DNA of 64,000 nucleotides from an uncultured Alphaproteobacteria bacterium. GTDB taxonomy: Bacteria; Pseudomonadota; Alphaproteobacteria; CAAHEQ01; UBA3637. Numbering within the stretch: position 1 is the stretch's first letter; each line of letters opens with the position of its first letter. Shown one piece after another: positions 2,880 through 62,498 of this stretch. A program made the translations under genes and the position numbers. The notes under the pieces were generated by a model, which was given only the letters and a program-made list of their open reading frames with translations, ran no database searches and was not told the DNA's origin. The DNA lies in contig CALXXX010000019.1 of NCBI GenBank assembly GCA_944392795.1, forward strand, positions 15,916-79,915, written 5' to 3'.

Positions 2880-3544
2880 TGACGGATTTAGAACGAGCTC
2901 AGATGAAAATGAGTAGCGAAGATTGTGAAACAATAACAAAAAAAATATTGTCTAAAAGAAAATCAACATCAGTTGATTTAACAATCTTTGATGCTATGAA
3001 AACAGCTTCTGAATATTGCTATGGCGGCGATACTCTTTTTGTTCGCGATTTTAGAAGAGGGCTTTATGAAAACTGTCTTCGGTATGTGAATGCCGGCGCG
3101 GATGATTTTAATTCTGAAACACAAAAAGCTTCATCAGATTCTGTTTCTCTTTGTCCATCTATTATGGTTGCTCATCAATATGAAGATATTTTATCTCGCA
3201 TTCAACAAATTAAGCAAAAATATCCCAAAATAGATTCTATGATGGATGATAAAACAATTTCACAAAAAGGCGTTTGTGCTGAATATGGGGATTGTTGTGA
3301 AAGATTGAATGACTTTTTATATATTTATAGGAAATTGAAAACATCTCCTAAAGGTTTAAATATGAAATGTATTGAAAATTGGTGTAAAGTTTATCCCGAA
3401 CAAGCTGTGCAAGTTGAAAAAGGTTTAAAAGAAATGGAAAAAATGCTCCCAATTTCAGAACAAGAACGGTGGAAAAGGACAACCGAAAAGAAGATTGCTC
3501 CTTCTTTTTTTCAAAAAATTTTAGGAAAGGGATTGAAGCGATAA
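2880..3544 (+). CDS. hypothetical protein (AT-rich, Cys-containing, no signal peptide)
   Basis: ORF 2810..3544. The start was moved to ATG 2880 (MTDLERAQ), which is preceded by AAGGAG. No recognisable family. Codon usage is markedly more AT-rich than the neighbours, and the gene lies next to tRNA-Met. Confidence 0.5.
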
Positions 3545-3567
3545 AAAGTTGACGAGCTTTTTATAAT

Positions 3568-3600
3568 AAAAAAACACTCTTATTAGAGTGTTTTTTTTTG
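3568..3600. terminator. bidirectional intrinsic terminator (A-tract / ACACTCT-tatt-AGAGTGT / T9)
   Basis: Perfect 7-bp stem flanked by an A-run and a 9-T run, between a + strand ORF and the - strand tRNA. Confidence 0.6.
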
Positions 3601-3602
3601 AT

Positions 3603-3679
3603 TGGTAGCGAGGGGGGGATTCGAACCCTCGACACGCGGATTATGATTCCGCTGCTCTAGCCAACTGAGCTACCCCGCC
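3603..3679 (-). tRNA. tRNA with anticodon CAU (elongator tRNA-Met; tRNA-Ile2/lysidine cannot be excluded)
   Basis: The reverse complement folds as a cloverleaf. Acceptor stem GGCGGGG/CCTCGCT, D-arm TAGCTCAGTTGGCTAGAGCA, anticodon stem-loop GCGGA-ATCATAA-TCCGC, T-loop GGTTCGAATCC, 3' CCA encoded. The D-arm is elongator-type. Confidence 0.85.
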
Positions 3680-3911
3680 ATAAGAACAACCGCTTTTATA
3701 CCTTTTCTTTTCTAAAAAGTCAATACTTATTTTAAATTAGGCAATAATATCATTCTTCTTGTTTAAGTCTTTGTCTCTTTTGGATAAGAGAAAAAGGGAA
3801 GTATTTTTTGTTTTCTTTTTAAAATCAATAACTTGTTAGATTTTTCTTGATTTTCTCTCCTGCTTTTATGTTATTATAAAAAACAACAATATGAGAATAA
3901 AGGAAAAAAAA

Positions 3912-4589
3912 ATGACAGAACTTTTTTTAACCGGACCGGCTGGACGATTGGAGGCCAGATATCATGCTGCGGAAAAACCAGATGCTCCAATCGCTTTGAT
4001 TTTACATCCCAATCCACAATTAGGCGGAACAATGAACAATAAGGTTGTTTATACGCTTTATCAGGCTTTTGTTCAGTTAGGCTTTTCTGTTTTAAGGTTC
4101 AATTTTCGAGGCGTTGGTAAATCTCAAGGTGTTTTTGACGGAGATTCCAATAATGAATTGGCAGATACATTAGCGGCATTGGATTTTTTAAAGTCTATGC
4201 ATCCTGAATCTTTGCATGCATGGGTGGCAGGTTACTCTTTTGGTGCTTTAGTTGGGTTATCTGTTTTAATGCGTCGTCCGGATATAAATGGTTTTGTTGC
4301 TGTTTCTCCACCAGCAAATGTTTGTGACTTTTCATTCTTAACCCCTTGTCCATCATCCGGATTGATTATTCAAGGGGGTGCGGATACGGTTGTTTCTGAG
4401 CCGGCAGTTGCAACTTTAGCTGAACGTTTGGATAGCTCACGAAAAGTTCAAGTTGATTATGTCCTATTACCGGATGCGGACCATTTGTATACCGGACAAT
4501 TAAAAGCGGTTTATGATGCTGTTTTAACGCATGTTCCTGAGCTGTTAATTTCTAAGAAGAAATCTGTAAAGAAGAAAAAGTCAGTCTAA
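3912..4589 (+). CDS. alpha/beta-fold hydrolase (COG2945-like)
   Basis: Nucleophile elbow GYSFG. About 225 aa, typical of small alpha/beta hydrolases. RBS-like AGGAAAAA before ATG 3912. Confidence 0.75.
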   Translation: MTELFLTGPAGRLEARYHAAEKPDAPIALILHPNPQLGGTMNNKVVYTLYQAFVQLGFSVLRFNFRGVGKSQGVFDGDSNNELADTLAALDFLKSMHPESLHAWVAGYSFGALVGLSVLMRRPDINGFVAVSPPANVCDFSFLTPCPSSGLIIQGGADTVVSEPAVATLAERLDSSRKVQVDYVLLPDADHLYTGQLKAVYDAVLTHVPELLISKKKSVKKKKSV

Positions 4590-4596
4590 AAAGAAA

Positions 4597-4632
4597 TAAA
4601 AAAGGAACTGCGGTGCAGTTCCTTTTTTTTTG
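4597..4632. terminator. bidirectional intrinsic terminator between hydrolase gene and rpsI
   Basis: A-run, GGAACTGC-ggtg-CAGTTCC, then T9. Confidence 0.65.
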
Positions 4633-39871: not shown

Positions 39872-39993
39872 AATGAGAGAAAGGAATATACAGAAATTTA
39901 TTTTTTTATATTCAGAAATACTAATTTTTTACATTGACACATTTAATTTAATATAGATATATAACTTAACCAATCGAGTGAGTGTGTCATAAA

Positions 39994-41166
39994 ATGTCGT
40001 TAATAAGGAAATTATTTTTCAAGTCTTGTTGTGGACGAAGTATGATAGAAATGCTTGGCATGTTGGCGATTGTGTCACTGCTAAGTTTAGGGTCATTTTG
40101 GGGGATAAGACAGCTTCGTATTCATGAAAAGGCAAACGAGCTTGCCTTTACTTGTACTCAAATCAGTCAAGACGTGTTGACTTCTGAGAAGATACAAAAT
40201 CTTCCGGAAGGGAGCTTGATTGAAGAAGTTGATTCAATACAAGTTTTCTCTGTCTCCTCAGATGCTTTTGTATTATCTCTGCCGCCGGTATCTGAGCCAA
40301 TTTGTCGTGTTTTATTGCCCTTATTTCAAAATGATTATCGTGTCTGGATAGAAGATACATTATGGAATGGAAATGAAGCTGCTTGTGTCGGGGAAGCTAT
40401 TCAAATTCAATTAGAAAGAAGTATCTCCGGTATATGGGATGAGCTGGATTCTTGTGAGGCGGGAAAAGTTCCTTTATTCTCTGGAGGGTGCGGATGTCCT
40501 GCAGATAAACCATTGTTAGTTGAGGGAGAATGTTCTGCGTCTTGTCCTCCTGAGCAAAAAGCGGGAAGTAATGGATTATGTTGTGCGGAACTGAATGAAG
40601 AGGGGAAGTGTTGTCAAACATTTTATGATTATGATAAGGCCACGGTCTGTTGCGAAAAAGGGGAAACAGCCTATACAAATGCTTATAACAAAGCTATGTG
40701 TTGTCCGGCCTCTTCAAAATTATCTGAGGTTGGCGTTTCTTGTTGGGGTGAGCAAATAAAAGCGTGTTGTCCCGTTGGTTTTTCTCCGCTGATGAAAAAC
40801 TGTAATCAACCTAAATGTTGTGTAGATGAACATTTCTATGATCTTTCAAAAAATGTTGTCTACTCGATCTGTTGTGCAGATGGATATATTGGGTACTCTC
40901 CTGAGGCTAATAGCTATTGTTGTCCTGTTCATTTAAATTATCATTTAGATATTGTTATCTCAAAAGATGAAGGATGCTGGTATGTTGATTTGAAAACTTG
41001 TTGTCCTGAGGGATATAGTGGCTATCTTTCTGAAACAGATATGAATAATCGATGTTCCCGAGAAAAAAGATGTTGTCCCGTTCAAAATTTGGTAGATGGT
41101 CATTGTTCTGGCGGCGATATTGAGACCTATAGAGGTGCTCCAAACGGTCAAATGATAGATGGTTGA
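39994..41166 (+). CDS. pilin-like protein (paralog 3) fused to a large paired-cysteine (CC-dyad) C-terminal domain
   Basis: Leader ..KSCCG, then RSMIEMLGMLAIVSLLSLGSFWG. A C-terminal region of about 250 aa carries at least 12 CC dyads (CCAELNEEGKCC..VCCEKGE..MCCPASS..ACCPVGF..KCCVDEH..ICCADGY..YCCPVH..TCCPEGY..RCCPVQN). The ORF track starts at GTG 39982; the first ATG is at 39994. Confidence 0.6.
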   Translation: MSLIRKLFFKSCCGRSMIEMLGMLAIVSLLSLGSFWGIRQLRIHEKANELAFTCTQISQDVLTSEKIQNLPEGSLIEEVDSIQVFSVSSDAFVLSLPPVSEPICRVLLPLFQNDYRVWIEDTLWNGNEAACVGEAIQIQLERSISGIWDELDSCEAGKVPLFSGGCGCPADKPLLVEGECSASCPPEQKAGSNGLCCAELNEEGKCCQTFYDYDKATVCCEKGETAYTNAYNKAMCCPASSKLSEVGVSCWGEQIKACCPVGFSPLMKNCNQPKCCVDEHFYDLSKNVVYSICCADGYIGYSPEANSYCCPVHLNYHLDIVISKDEGCWYVDLKTCCPEGYSGYLSETDMNNRCSREKRCCPVQNLVDGHCSGGDIETYRGAPNGQMIDG

Positions 41167-55815: not shown

Positions 55816-57132
<1,317 letters not shown>

Positions 57133-57409
57133 TTAAAAACATATCTTTCCTTGTATCTCGAAATTAACAAAGTTTCAAGTTTTTTTTATAAAAAAGCTCT
57201 TAAAGAGACTTGTACTTCTGTTCAAGATACAGCAAGATAATACTAATTTGAAGATTATTGAAAAAGTTTCTCCCAAAATGACTATATAGAGGATAAAAAA
57301 GCAGCTGTTTTTTTATTTAAAAAAATATTTACAAATCGACTATTATTTTGTTATTCTAACTTAAAGAATATACAAAAGGAGTTTAATATGTCTATTTTAG
57401 CTAAAGTTA

Positions 57410-57421
57410 CCCCCCCCCCCC
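57410..57421 (+). repeat. homopolymeric poly-C tract (12 C), candidate slipped-strand phase-variation switch
   Basis: Twelve consecutive C in an AT-rich genome. The tract sits 22 nt downstream of an ATG (57388) that has a good RBS (AAAAGGAGTTTAAT), and separates that start by +1 from the downstream CC-dyad ORF. Confidence 0.9.
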
Positions 57422-57502
57422 ATATTAATTAATTGTTTTAATTATATAATCCTCTTTTCTATTCTTGCTTTACCTGCTTCTGCTAAAGTTGTTCAAAGAA
57501 AA

Positions 57503-58036
57503 ATGTATATGGTTTGTGAAGAGCATGAAAAAGCCTATTGGAATGGTTCAAAGGGTGTGTGTTGCAATGGTAATGTTTATCAAAAAGCTGAAAATGAGTA
57601 TGCTTGTTGTCCTGTCGGGCAATTTGTCAAAAATATCAGCGGTTCTTCTTACCAAATTTGCTGCGCGGAAGATTATCTGAGTGGATATATTCTTGATGAT
57701 GTCGTTATGTGTTGTTCGAATAATCCGAATGCTGCAGGTCAGGAAAAGCAATGCTGTACGAACGGTGGAGAATGGATTTTAACACAACAAACTGGTTCCT
57801 GTAACTGTAACAATGGAAATGCACCTGCCGAAATTAATATACAAGAAACAATTTATTCTTGTGGCGGACAACAATATTGTGATGTCAATAGCCCTGGTTC
57901 ACAATGGCTGTTATCTGCTGAACTCTGTACATACGGTCCATTATATTTTAAAAGATATGATTGTATACAAGAAGAACAATTAACGAGCTGTGATAATTTT
58001 TCCAGCTATGACTGTTGTGGATATTTTTATCAATAA
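57503..58036 (+). CDS. secreted CC-dyad cysteine-rich protein, paralog of the C-terminal domain of the 39994..41166 pilin-like gene (probably translated from ATG 57388 only when the poly-C tract is 11 or 14 nt)
   Basis: The ORF contains VCCNG..ACCPVGQ..ICCAEDY..MCCSNNP..QCCTNGG..CNC. repeats. The in-frame upstream extension back to the poly-C encodes a signal-peptide-like ILINCFNYIILFSILALPASA. Confidence 0.55.
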   Translation: MYMVCEEHEKAYWNGSKGVCCNGNVYQKAENEYACCPVGQFVKNISGSSYQICCAEDYLSGYILDDVVMCCSNNPNAAGQEKQCCTNGGEWILTQQTGSCNCNNGNAPAEINIQETIYSCGGQQYCDVNSPGSQWLLSAELCTYGPLYFKRYDCIQEEQLTSCDNFSSYDCCGYFYQ

Positions 58037-58111: not shown

Positions 58112-58936
58112 TTATAAATCGGTTTTTGCTACACAATCAAACGCCATCATTTTTTTCAATAAGTTTTCCAACTCAGCAAAAACAATCATATTAGGACCAT
58201 CACTGGGAGCTTTGTCCGGATCTTTGTGTGTTTCGACAAATACACCGGCTATTCCGGTCGTCAGAGCAGCATTTGCTATAACGGGTGCAAACCGTCTGTC
58301 TCCGCCAGAAGAGGAACCCTGTCCTCCGGGTTGTTGTACCGCATGCGTTGCGTCAATAATCACAGGATATCCTGTTTCTTTCATAATAGGTAAACTCCGC
58401 ATATCAACGATCAAGGTGTTATATCCAAAAGAAACGCCTCTCTCCGTTAATAAGATATTCTGATTGCCAGAATCGGCAATTTTAGCGGCGACATTTTTCA
58501 TATCCCAAGGCGCTAAGAACTGTCCTTTTTTGACATTGATGACAGAGCCTGTTCGAGCTGCGGCGACAAGTAAATCCGTTTGTCGACATAAAAAAGCCGG
58601 AATTTGTAAAATATCCACAACTTCTGATGCTGGAAGACATTGAGCGGGTTCATGGATATCTGTTAAAGTTAAGCAGCCGACTTGTTCCTTAATCTCTTGA
58701 AAAGCAGACAATCCTTTTTCTAATCCTAATCCGCGTTTCCCGGATAAAGAGGTGCGATTAGCTTTATCAAAAGAGGCTTTAAATACAAAAGGGATTCCAA
58801 GACGGTCTGTCAATTCTTTCAAAGCAGTGGCCATTTCAAGCCCATGCTCCCGACTTTCCATTTGACAAGGACCAGCAATCAAAACAAACGGTAAATCATT
58901 ACCGAATGTAACATTTTTAACAGAAACATGTTTCAT
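58112..58936 (-). CDS. kdsA: 3-deoxy-8-phosphooctulonate synthase
   Basis: KdsA motifs (..LPFVLIAGPCQMES; KASFDKANR.S; conserved HxH region). Start moved to ATG 58936 (MKHVSVKN). Confidence 0.9.
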   Translation of the reverse strand: MKHVSVKNVTFGNDLPFVLIAGPCQMESREHGLEMATALKELTDRLGIPFVFKASFDKANRTSLSGKRGLGLEKGLSAFQEIKEQVGCLTLTDIHEPAQCLPASEVVDILQIPAFLCRQTDLLVAAARTGSVINVKKGQFLAPWDMKNVAAKIADSGNQNILLTERGVSFGYNTLIVDMRSLPIMKETGYPVIIDATHAVQQPGGQGSSSGGDRRFAPVIANAALTTGIAGVFVETHKDPDKAPSDGPNMIVFAELENLLKKMMAFDCVAKTDL

Positions 58937-58940
58937 CAAA

Positions 58941-59231
58941 TTATTCCTGAACTGGAGCTTCAATAGGAACGGTCGTTGTCACCATACTGGTTCTTTGCAA
59001 GTCACGTTTTGCTAAAATACCTAATGTGAGTGTTGTTACAACAAAGCAAAAAGCTAAAATAGCTGTCAAACGAGTGAGCATGTTTCCGACAGAACGACCT
59101 GTCATAAAGCTGGTTGCTGCTGTTCCGCCGCCTAAGCCTCCTAAAGCACCGCCTTCAGAACGCTGTAATAAGACTAAGGCGCACAAAAATACGGCTAAAA
59201 TAATATCAATAACAAGAACGACAGTATACAT
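58941..59231 (-). CDS. secG: preprotein translocase subunit SecG
   Basis: Two TM helices with the Gly-rich loop (LLQRSEGGALGGLGGG) typical of SecG. Conserved tpiA-secG adjacency. Confidence 0.8.
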   Translation of the reverse strand: MYTVVLVIDIILAVFLCALVLLQRSEGGALGGLGGGTAATSFMTGRSVGNMLTRLTAILAFCFVVTTLTLGILAKRDLQRTSMVTTTVPIEAPVQE

Positions 59232-60182: not shown

Positions 60183-62498
60183 TTAACCACGACCGTTTGA
60201 TAATTTTTGCTTTAAAAGGGAAGTTGTCGATACGGCAACGGATTTTTCTCCTTCTTCCAAACCTAAGCCCTTTCCGCTCCATTTTAACTGAGCACGTTTA
60301 GCTTCTTTGTTTGCTAATGTCAAAGCTTTTTGAATATCTTCATCAGACAGACCTTTAGATTTTAAGAACTCTGCCAATGTCTGAGGATTTTTTTGTGATT
60401 GTTGCACTTGTTCTTTTTTCTCAGAGACAGCAGGTTGTTTTCCTTCTGCTTCTGGTTTGAAAGCACTTACAGTAATATTGACGTCCTCAGCACCTGTTCC
60501 GACATAAGTGTAAGCTTCCACAGGCTTTGTTTCATCTGCTTTGACTTCGGCGGTTTGCTGTTCTTTTTCAGAAGTAAACAATCCGGATACTTTTTCAACA
60601 CTTTTTTGCGCAAAATTTGAAACATCTCCAGGTAAGTCTTTGACGACTTGAGCTGTTCCATCCACCATTTTGTTAAACCCTTCTTTTGTCGTAAAGGCAT
60701 CAGCAACAACATGTCCTGCATCTTTGACTTTATCATAAGCTGCAGCAATTTGATCACCTGTTCGTTGCATAAATGTTTTGGGATGAGGGTTCATTTCAGG
60801 CGGCAAAGCGACAGGTAAAGCGCCGAATGTAGGTGTTACAATGGTTACGATATAAGGATCTGGTTCAAACTGTCGAACAGTCCAATTTTTTGCATCCGTT
60901 AAAGCGTCTCCCATGTAATCATAAGCTGTTTGTGCTCCGGCTTTTGTCGATTGCCAGACGCTATCCATTGTTGTTCCTTTTTCGAAGGTGAGATTATCTA
61001 CAAAGCGATTCCATCCTTCTTGAGTAGGTGTAACTGCATCTAAAGCTTCTTCTAATAATGTTGGATCAGCAGCTTCTGCAGAAGGTTTTTCTGTTTGAGC
61101 AATTTGTGCGTTTTCTTTTTGAGCAGGTGTAAGCGCATCTATAACAGAATTAAATCCACCTTTGACACTTTGCCATACACCATCCGTTGTGGTGCCATCT
61201 TTGAAAGTCAAATTATCAACAAAAGTATTCCAGCCTTTTTCTAATGAGTTTGGCCCGGTTGCTTCTTGAGTAGTCGTTTCTGCTTGAGCAACTTCAGGTT
61301 TTGCAACTTCTTCTTGAACGGATGTTGTTTTAGTCGCCTCTTGAGCAATTTGTGCGTTTTCTTTTTGAGCAGGTGTAAGCGCATCTACAACAGAGTTAAC
61401 TCCTCCTTTGACACTTTGCCACATACCGTCGGTTGTTGTCCCTTTTTCAAAAGTAAGATTATCTCCGATAACCTGCATTGTTTCTTTTGATGGCGTGACA
61501 TAATCAACTGTGTCAGAAGCAATTTGAACAGTGCCATTCCAAATTTTTTGTAAACCTTCTTGTGTCGGCGTAATAGCATCTAAAGCATCTCCGACTTGTT
61601 GTTGACTTGGTAAGATGGAAGAAACAACATCAATCGTTCCATTCCAAGCTCCCTTGGTTTCTTGAATGATGGTGTCTGTGACTTTTTCTAATCCGGTTTT
61701 TTCGTCGAAACCATAAGTTTGATATTCTCCATTTTCATCTAAGTACATACCAAAACCTTTTGGTATATTTGTCTCATCATCCATTCCCATCATGGCATTG
61801 AGCTGTTCTAATGTTTCTCGTTCTTGTGCCATATAGCGGCCGATCGCTTTTAAAGCTTCTTTTTGTTCGCTCTCTGTTAATCGTTGTTGTTCTGGGTTTT
61901 GTGGAGCCACTTCGGAAGGTGCAGAAGAAGGTGTTTCAACATTGGATTCTTGTTGAACGGTTGGTGTTTGTTCTACTGTTGAAGAAGATTGCTCAGCTAC
62001 TTGAGTTTGCACTTGAATTCCGGTTGTTCCATTTGCTCGATTTTGACGCGCCAAAGCCATCACTTCCTCAAAAGACTGTGGATTTTGGGGAGCTGGAGTG
62101 TTTTCCGTTGACGATTGTCCGGGCATTCCGATACCTGCAGCTGTGATTTTATCGTTAATCGTAGAAGGGGCTTCATTAGAAACTTGAACTTCAATTCCAG
62201 ATGTGTTTGTTCCATAACCGGAAGCGGCTAATCGCCCTTGTTCCAGGACTTGCTCAAAGGCAGAAGCAGCAGAGTTTTCAATACGATTTTGCTGTGCTTG
62301 TGCAATATTTAAACCAGATTGGTCAGAACGAACTTCAACGCGTTCTTGAGCTTGTCGTGCGGCTTTTGCAAAAGGAGACTCATACTCATATCCTGTATAA
62401 TGACGAAGCATGGCATTGCCACCCATTAAAATACCTGCGCAAGCAATTAAAGATAATAATTTATGATTTTTGATGAAACGTGAAACAACACTGGCCAT
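60183..62498 (-). CDS. large lineage-specific repetitive protein (N-terminal TM anchor, Gln/Thr/Glu-rich low-complexity segments, tandem 81-aa repeats)
   Basis: 771-aa ORF with a single N-terminal hydrophobic segment. Repeated module ..(F/I)VDNLTF(K/E)(D/K)GTT(T/M)D(G/S)(V/M)WQS(V/T)K(G/A)G.NSV(I/V)DALTPAQKENAQIAQ.. in at least 3 copies. No family recognised. Confidence 0.6.
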   Translation of the reverse strand: MASVVSRFIKNHKLLSLIACAGILMGGNAMLRHYTGYEYESPFAKAARQAQERVEVRSDQSGLNIAQAQQNRIENSAASAFEQVLEQGRLAASGYGTNTSGIEVQVSNEAPSTINDKITAAGIGMPGQSSTENTPAPQNPQSFEEVMALARQNRANGTTGIQVQTQVAEQSSSTVEQTPTVQQESNVETPSSAPSEVAPQNPEQQRLTESEQKEALKAIGRYMAQERETLEQLNAMMGMDDETNIPKGFGMYLDENGEYQTYGFDEKTGLEKVTDTIIQETKGAWNGTIDVVSSILPSQQQVGDALDAITPTQEGLQKIWNGTVQIASDTVDYVTPSKETMQVIGDNLTFEKGTTTDGMWQSVKGGVNSVVDALTPAQKENAQIAQEATKTTSVQEEVAKPEVAQAETTTQEATGPNSLEKGWNTFVDNLTFKDGTTTDGVWQSVKGGFNSVIDALTPAQKENAQIAQTEKPSAEAADPTLLEEALDAVTPTQEGWNRFVDNLTFEKGTTMDSVWQSTKAGAQTAYDYMGDALTDAKNWTVRQFEPDPYIVTIVTPTFGALPVALPPEMNPHPKTFMQRTGDQIAAAYDKVKDAGHVVADAFTTKEGFNKMVDGTAQVVKDLPGDVSNFAQKSVEKVSGLFTSEKEQQTAEVKADETKPVEAYTYVGTGAEDVNITVSAFKPEAEGKQPAVSEKKEQVQQSQKNPQTLAEFLKSKGLSDEDIQKALTLANKEAKRAQLKWSGKGLGLEEGEKSVAVSTTSLLKQKLSNGRG
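60900..61500 (-). repeat. intragenic tandem repeat, period about 243 bp (81 codons), at least 3 copies
   Basis: Near-identical nucleotide stretches, e.g. 61100-61220 and 61343-61465 (CAATTTGTGCGTTTTCTTTTTGAGCAGGTGTAAGCGCATCTA(T/C)AACAGA...TTTGACACTTTGCCA(T/C)A(C/T)ACC(A/G)TC(C/G)GTTGT), with a third more diverged copy at about 60900-61020. Confidence 0.7.

Follow-up and report, generated by a model that had tools for sequence, protein, structure and literature searches.

In the stretch of contig CALXXX010000019.1 analyzed here (64,000 nucleotides from an uncultured member of the Alphaproteobacteria, hereafter the window), a gene for a predicted exported, cysteine-rich protein carries an uninterrupted run of 12 cytosines near its 5' end, and we propose that this gene is probably a translational phase-variation (contingency) locus. 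The tract places the start codon and the gene body in different reading frames, it varies in length between strains independently of the haplotype background, the gene body is under purifying selection, a C-rich tract occupies the same position throughout the family, and paralogues occur in both in-frame (ON) and out-of-frame (OFF) states. Under the proposed mechanism, translation would start at ATG 57388, where the first seven codons and the proline run encoded by the tract would form the n-region of a Sec signal peptide, and slipped-strand mispairing during replication, the probable cause of the length changes, would add or remove C. Only lengths of 3n+2 (8, 11, or 14) would keep the hydrophobic h-region, the ASA cleavage site, and a 183-residue protein with paired cysteines (CC dyads) in frame, and at all other lengths translation would end two to four codons beyond the tract. 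The sequenced C12 allele would be OFF, one C deletion from ON, and switching would presumably be reversible within a single population.

Reading frames of the tract and its length among strains

The first-pass annotation of this DNA had described the C12 run (57410-57421) as a strong outlier, and it is the sole C or G run of at least 8 in the window, where ~4e-5 such runs are expected from the base composition (38.6% G+C); all other C runs are shorter than 6 and the longest G run is 7. The Shine-Dalgarno sequence recognized in that annotation ahead of ATG 57388 is indeed present (Table 1), and its AAAGGAG is kept together with the ATG in orthologues and most paralogues. The frame from this ATG stops early, as had been read, and the resulting OFF peptide MSILAKVTPPPHIN holds three prolines, not the four first reported. 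When the region was rebuilt in silico with 9 to 15 C and translated, 11 or 14 C gave a product of 215 or 216 residues, MSILAKVTPPP(P)ILINCFNYIILFSILALPASAKVVQRKMYMVCEEH…, in which the signal peptide (…ALPASA, then KVVQRK) and the Cys-rich open reading frame (ORF) are rejoined as the annotation had anticipated, and 9, 10, 12, 13, or 15 C gave peptides of only 12-15 residues. Between the upstream stop at 57398-57400 and ATG 57503, the signal-peptide frame contains no ATG, GTG, or TTG, and therefore the signal-peptide-like segment is untranslatable in the C12 allele. ATG 57503, the start chosen by gene callers for a 177-residue ORF, had no Shine-Dalgarno sequence upstream on inspection.

This 177-residue ORF falls in a 90%-identity cluster of eight distinct sequences, whose contigs we inspected. 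A comparison of strains, which the first-pass annotation had suggested, found 9, 10, 12, or 13 C in ~10 independent metagenome assemblies: C12 in the window, C9 in L022 (ERZ16268233), C10 in L001 (ERZ16268244), L002 (ERR10610627), L007 (CASDQF01), and L023 (ERZ16268230), and C13 in L019 (ERZ28613925), L020 (ERZ24773405), L021 (ERZ16268056), and L024 (ERZ28613582). In L025 (ERZ24773530) the preceding A is replaced by C and followed by C12, and L026 (ERZ16268229) has C12 at the end of a contig that begins 7 nt before the tract, together with a nonsense codon. The ~1-kb alignment of eight strains contains two single-nucleotide polymorphism (SNP) haplogroups. Length differences in an A run (A6/A7) and a T run (T6/T8) track these groups, and poly-C alone among the indels fails to do so, with 12, 13, 13, and 9 C in group A and 10, 13, 10, and 13 C in group B. 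The window differs from L019/L020 by one substitution in the aligned 1 kb, yet carries C12 where these carry C13. Because near-identical strains differ in C count and lengths are uncoupled from haplogroups, the tract changes in length faster than point mutations accumulate, which is a prediction of a hypermutable repeat.

That these differences are instead homopolymer sequencing or assembly artifacts, hiding a fixed and possibly in-frame true length, we consider very unlikely. The spread from 9 to 13 exceeds the usual consensus error, errors would not avoid 11 and 14, and the same lengths recur in separate data, with C10 in two separate assemblies that give the same 177-residue product (L001 from ENA and L002 from Logan) and C13 in both L019 and L020, which come from different samples and assemblers; the tract also lies at the same codons in all paralogues, giving ON and OFF gene calls. 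Against these points, all tract lengths reported here were taken from the consensus of short-read metagenome assemblies, several of them covered only 2-3x (L020 and L025, for instance), C/G homopolymers of at least 10 are error-prone, the L026 contig has its end beside the tract, and the contigs of a multi-copy metagenome-assembled genome (MAG) described below break at the cassettes.

The protein family, its predicted export and its paralogues

The ON product has a lysine at position 6, a 17-residue hydrophobic stretch ILINCFNYIILFSILAL, and A-S-A before a lysine, with no lipobox Cys at +1, and relatives are laid out alike; by the -3/-1 rule it would probably be cleaved after ASA, and these features suggest export by the Sec pathway. 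The protein has 22 Cys, and sequence profile searches with it against Pfam, NCBIfam, and PDB returned no match. An AlphaFold2 model from a 38-sequence alignment reached a mean predicted local distance difference test (pLDDT) score of 57 and a predicted template modeling (pTM) score of 0.36, with only residues 10-50 exceeding a pLDDT of 70, as beta hairpins, and a Foldseek search of PDB with this model returned noise only. Four family members weakly match the galaxin-like CC-dyad family PF24748 (best E 0.0015; P0038 at 18.1 bits vs a gathering cut-off of 28), which the window protein itself does not match. The galaxin-like proteins of corals and squid share with ours CC dyads every ~10-30 residues in a secreted protein, but all family matches fall below the gathering threshold (18 vs 28 bits), and membership was rejected as a resemblance in composition only that does not imply homology.

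Searching with the repaired 215-residue protein returned five clusters, all unnamed and without Pfam domains, and the contigs of all five have a C-rich tract at the same place. A profile search extended the family to 45 clusters, and an exhaustive hidden Markov model (HMM) search of 1.84 billion proteins yielded no more than 67 representatives; scanning JGI metagenomes with the family alignment recovered none, and every relative derives from an ENA, NCBI, or Logan assembly. The leader, MSILAKVT or MF(I/T)LTK(I/L)T, is kept across the family, including in members called in frame (P0002, P0005-7, P0019, P0022, and others). Family N-termini are of three kinds: those called in frame as MF(I/T)LTK(I/L)TPPPP… or …PPLPP…; those called from an internal MHMVC or MVC, which are OFF or else truncated where a contig ends; and distant members with an ordinary signal peptide in the corresponding position and no proline run, such as P0039 (MLKSIAVCLSLSLAALPVHA ahead of KTIHRQAYKVC). 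Because these distant, tract-less members (P0021, P0037, P0039-42, and P0054-60) have ordinary signal peptides, the ancestral design was probably a Sec-type exported protein, to which poly-C was probably added later, in the n-region, in one sub-lineage.

Larger distant relatives (P0062, P0076, P0088, P0093, and P0102) have a prepilin-like N-terminus before CC-dyad-rich domains. The window also encodes, at 39982-41166 on the forward strand, a 394-residue protein with a prepilin-like N-terminus, G/RSMIEMLGMLAIV (GRSMIEML, E at +5), and a CC-dyad-rich C-terminal part. The similarity of this protein to the family is weak (tblastn E 0.046; hhalign probability 10%), and its gene lies just downstream of a tandem repeat of a 22-bp unit, 2.9 copies, at 39886-39949. 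As these relatives and the 394-residue protein have prepilin-like N-termini, there are hints that the CC-dyad module may be displayed outside the cell.

In the genome collection, two MAGs contained matches, both from uncultured Alphaproteobacteria. The first carries a 97%-identical orthologue (L007) in the same arrangement between eno and kdsA, and only one copy was found both in this MAG and in the window. The second, E02__bin238, represents a sister species and gave 11 hits and two further copies on the same loci, one of them a tandem neighbor; these 13 pieces amount to at least ten genes when contig-end fragments are allowed for. We worked out start codon, tract, and frame copy by copy. Homologues carry C12-C16, or a tract broken by one base, at the same codons, and every C/G run of at least 8 in the 174 kb of fetched DNA is located within the 5' end of a family member. 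Seven copies are ON: L003, L009, L010b, and L011 with C13, L006 with C7TC6, L008 gene 1 with C12, and L010a with C7TC5. Nine are OFF: the window and L017 with C12, L001 with C10, L004 with C14, L005 with C6TC7, L008 gene 2 with C12, L012 with C8AC6, and L015 and L016 with C15. A full-length open frame downstream of the tract is kept in every OFF copy except L012. These paralogues, together with the strain comparison, support the first-pass suggestion of a candidate phase-variable locus, as they combine length polymorphism, an intact and selected gene body, and homologues in both states.

The 5' ends of the paralogues are mosaic. L003 (330-1290) and L008 gene 1 (1-935) represent the same eno-side locus in two assemblies and are ~99% identical from the AKIIQRK codons to past the stop codon, but are unrelated upstream. 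The upstream part of L008 matches L004 (3800-4560), a different locus in a different assembly, after which the L004 body diverges; L004 and L008 gene 1 therefore have the same 5' cassette with C14 (OFF) and C12 (ON), respectively. Since the same body carries unrelated cassettes and the same cassette recurs on another body, cassettes of promoter, leader, and tract appear to have been exchanged between gene bodies by recombination between paralogues, with a breakpoint in the conserved AAAAT(C/T)ATTCAAAGAAAAATGCACATGG segment. The shared 5' cassette includes an inverted repeat rich in G+C, GCCCGCCCCCTGAAATTCAGGGGGGCACAGGGGGCGGGC, which is located ~140 nt 5' of several paralogues (L006 ~3840-3880; also L010, L011, and L017) and may be either a terminator belonging to the preceding gene or an element resembling repetitive extragenic palindromic (REP) sequences. 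The sister species also has tandem pairs of family members or members on both sides of eno (L010:3099-3728 and 4001-4612; L005:2-619 and 1037-1731; L008:84-740 and 2948-3798). Many of its copies lie at contig ends, and therefore the cassettes break short-read assemblies.

With ten or more gene copies that each carry a separate tract, some ON and some OFF, and with 5' cassettes apparently swapped by recombination, a population of the sister species could vary combinatorially which exported proteins are made. More tentatively, we raise the possibility, at somewhat less than even odds, of a combinatorial system like that of the Neisseria Opa proteins, composed of at least ten exported CC-dyad paralogues, each with its own poly-C and with shuffled cassettes, and with the module also borne on type IV pilin-like proteins.

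Purifying selection and the weighing of alternatives

The gene body is under purifying selection and is not a pseudogene. Over the post-tract signal-peptide codons and the mature frame, the ratio of non-synonymous to synonymous polymorphism per site (pN/pS) among orthologues is 0.11-0.22 at a pS of ~0.1, vs ~1 expected for a pseudogene; pairs involving L024 show 6-12 non-synonymous vs 11-15 synonymous changes with ~4x as many non-synonymous sites. Nine of ~10 alleles retain an uninterrupted open frame of 204 codons between the tract and the stop codon, and the coding region outside the tract contains no indel in the ~1-kb alignment of eight strains. Shine-Dalgarno sequence, ATG, leader, and signal peptide are all conserved among orthologues, and the signal-peptide segment is open in every one, with conservative changes only (L to F, A to T, V to L, and V to I). 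A dead or dying gene in the window species, whose tract drifts unselected and whose OFF state is permanent, is very unlikely in the face of this conservation and of the ON alleles of the same design in the sister species; moreover, point mutation should break an unselected tract, whereas C9-13 survives uninterrupted in DNA of such low G+C content. Loss of function would account for the lack of ON alleles among the orthologues and for the internal stops of L026 and the paralogue L012, which are detailed below, and some copies (the L026 allele and L012) are decaying.

A further explanation would have the protein made at any tract length in the DNA, through RNA polymerase slippage, ribosomal frameshifting on the C/Pro run, or initiation at ATG 57503, so that the tract tunes expression rather than switching it. 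Transcriptional slippage can arise at long homopolymers, mostly A/T runs, and such expression would fit both the persistence of purifying selection though every sampled allele is OFF and the choice of ATG 57503 by gene callers. The alleles, however, occur in both wrong frames (9 and 12 vs 10 and 13 C), and no single programmed shift rescues them all; folding predicted no RNA structure around the tract that could stimulate a shift (z = +0.85), and on these two grounds programmed ribosomal frameshifting was rejected. Initiation at ATG 57503 would proceed without a Shine-Dalgarno sequence and would yield a product lacking the signal peptide, which all relatives retain whether or not they have a tract, and a protein with 22 Cys would be unlikely to fold in the cytoplasm. 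Given also that length change at the DNA level is seen directly between near-identical strains, we find expression independent of tract length highly doubtful.

In addition to the consensus nature of the tract calls, several observations weigh against phase variation at this locus. In the window species the ON frame is absent from all ~10 orthologous alleles, an outcome with a chance of ~0.02-0.06 under one-in-three random frames, depending on sample independence, and the protein database contains no 215-residue form of the window orthologue. In one allele (L026:1-240), codon 10 of the MHM… ORF is changed from GAA to the nonsense codon TAA, and one paralogue (L012:3956-4243) combines its interrupted C8AC6 tract and OFF frame with an internal stop. 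In E02__bin238, near-identical 5' cassettes could make the tract lengths assigned to individual loci unreliable. The comparison was made between assemblies only, in which heterogeneity and reversibility within a population were not observed, and the case for export comes from sequence features alone. As 0 of ~10 alleles are ON while the gene remains under purifying selection, the simplest reading under phase variation is a predominance of OFF cells in the sampled populations, with ON as a minority state.

Genomic setting and comparison with known systems

The features of the locus are collected in Table 1. The promoter region is near-invariant in eight orthologous loci, except for the A6/A7 difference at 57319-57325 that tracks the SNP haplogroups, and no intrinsic terminator was found 3' of the gene. 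The orientation in the first-pass annotation, which had the gene divergent to kdsA, needs correction, as the gene is divergent from eno and convergent with kdsA. A recent insertion into a conserved kdsA-eno neighborhood, as also put forward there, was rejected, since the sister species carries a family member in the same eno-kdsA slot, even though its copies are only ~35-65% identical.

Table 1. Coordinates of the features at the poly-C locus in the window
Feature	Position	Strand	Remarks
Candidate sigma-70-like promoter(s)	57317-57357	+	TTAAAA-18-TATTAT and TTTACA-18-TATTCT with upstream TG; consensus scan only
Shine-Dalgarno sequence AAAAGGAG	57374-57381	+	Six bases 5' of ATG 57388; read from sequence
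True start and 14-codon truncated ORF MSILAKVTPPPHIN in the C12 allele	57388-57432	+	Stop TAA 57430-57432
Poly-C tract C12, putative hypermutable switch	57410-57421	+	Codons 8-12 of the ORF from 57388; ON lengths 8, 11, 14
Signal-peptide h- and c-regions ILINCFNYIILFSILALPASA	57422-57484	+	Mature-protein frame; out of frame with ATG 57388 in the C12 allele
Mature Cys-rich protein	57485-58036	+	183 codons and stop, 7 CC dyads; ATG 57503 inside
eno (enolase), divergent upstream neighbor	55816-57102	-	Pfam Enolase_N, Enolase_C on the orthologous gene
kdsA (DAHP_synth_1 family), convergent downstream neighbor	58112-58963	-	PF00793 on the orthologous gene

Elsewhere in the window, the reverse strand at 60183-62498 encodes a 771-residue protein with internal repeats (…DALTPAQKENAQIAQ… and …FVDNLTF(E/K)(K/D)GTT(T/M)D(G/S)(V/M)WQS(V/T)K(G/A)G…), whose place beside tpiA is conserved in the orthologous contig and whose orthologue gives only a faint Pex14_N match. 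The three longest A/T runs in the window (T9 at 3591-3599, A9 at 3904-3912, and T9 at 4623-4631) are clustered within ~1 kb near a transfer RNA gene (3606-3679) and the longest G run (G7, 3612-3618).

Simple repeats that lie in the region coding for the signal peptide and gate the translation of surface proteins are known from Neisseria pilC (poly-G) and from Helicobacter pylori outer-membrane protein genes (CT repeats), which belong to other phyla, encode other proteins, differ from ours in repeat strand or type, and share no homology with it. By mechanism, the closest systems appear to be Neisseria opa and Gardnerella nanH3. The opa genes have CTCTT repeats in the region coding for the leader peptide, many paralogues, and recombination between copies (PMC3960869). 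As in opa, the repeat of the window gene lies within the coding region of the signal or leader peptide, where slippage would shift the frame and truncate translation, and the sister species has many paralogues per genome with their own repeats, which could switch independently, and with recombination mosaics that are here read from sequence. Unlike opa, the repeat is a homopolymeric poly-C rather than a pentamer. The product is a Cys-rich protein that looks soluble, shows no detectable resemblance to the Opa beta-barrel, and matches nothing in Pfam or NCBIfam, and multiple copies were found only in the sister species, with one in the window and in the species-representative MAG. The nanH3 sialidase gene has C8-14 just after the signal peptide, with a modal length that differs between strains; every third length gives the full protein, at most lengths the product is a truncated peptide of a few dozen residues, and heterogeneity within a culture was seen in clone libraries (bioRxiv 10.1101/2020.09.16.300947). 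It shares with the window gene a poly-C of similar length at the 5' end of a gene for an exported protein, but the tract follows the signal peptide in nanH3 and lies inside the n-region here, and nanH3 is a single gene for a known enzyme whose heterogeneity was shown in clone libraries, whereas variation here is known from assembly consensus. Among host-adapted alphaproteobacteria, Bartonella is reported to have contingency loci with simple sequence repeats, in other genes and other repeat contexts (PMC11466379). The window gene would work like the opa, nanH3, and Bartonella loci, without homology to them and without membership in their families.

The mechanism is already known, as the slipped-strand on/off switch familiar from Neisseria and Campylobacter; what is new is the host lineage, the protein family, and the occurrence of a poly-C cassette throughout that family. 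Simple-repeat phase variation has been documented almost entirely in cultured pathogens, and its logic recurs here in a lineage known only from metagenomes and in an unannotated protein family. Poly-C gating explains why gene callers truncate these proteins at an internal Met, and short-read assemblies of such genomes are broken, and may also be scrambled, by the cassettes. If the more tentative combinatorial reading is true, this would be a previously unseen system of surface or secretome variation in a metagenome-only lineage, of which the window gene would be a single-copy representative that is OFF in most sampled populations. The proteins may act at the cell surface or in interactions with hosts or phages, and poly-C gating marks Cys-rich exported proteins as probable targets of fluctuating selection (e.g., by host immunity, phage, or niche binding), which is otherwise very hard to infer in an uncultured organism.

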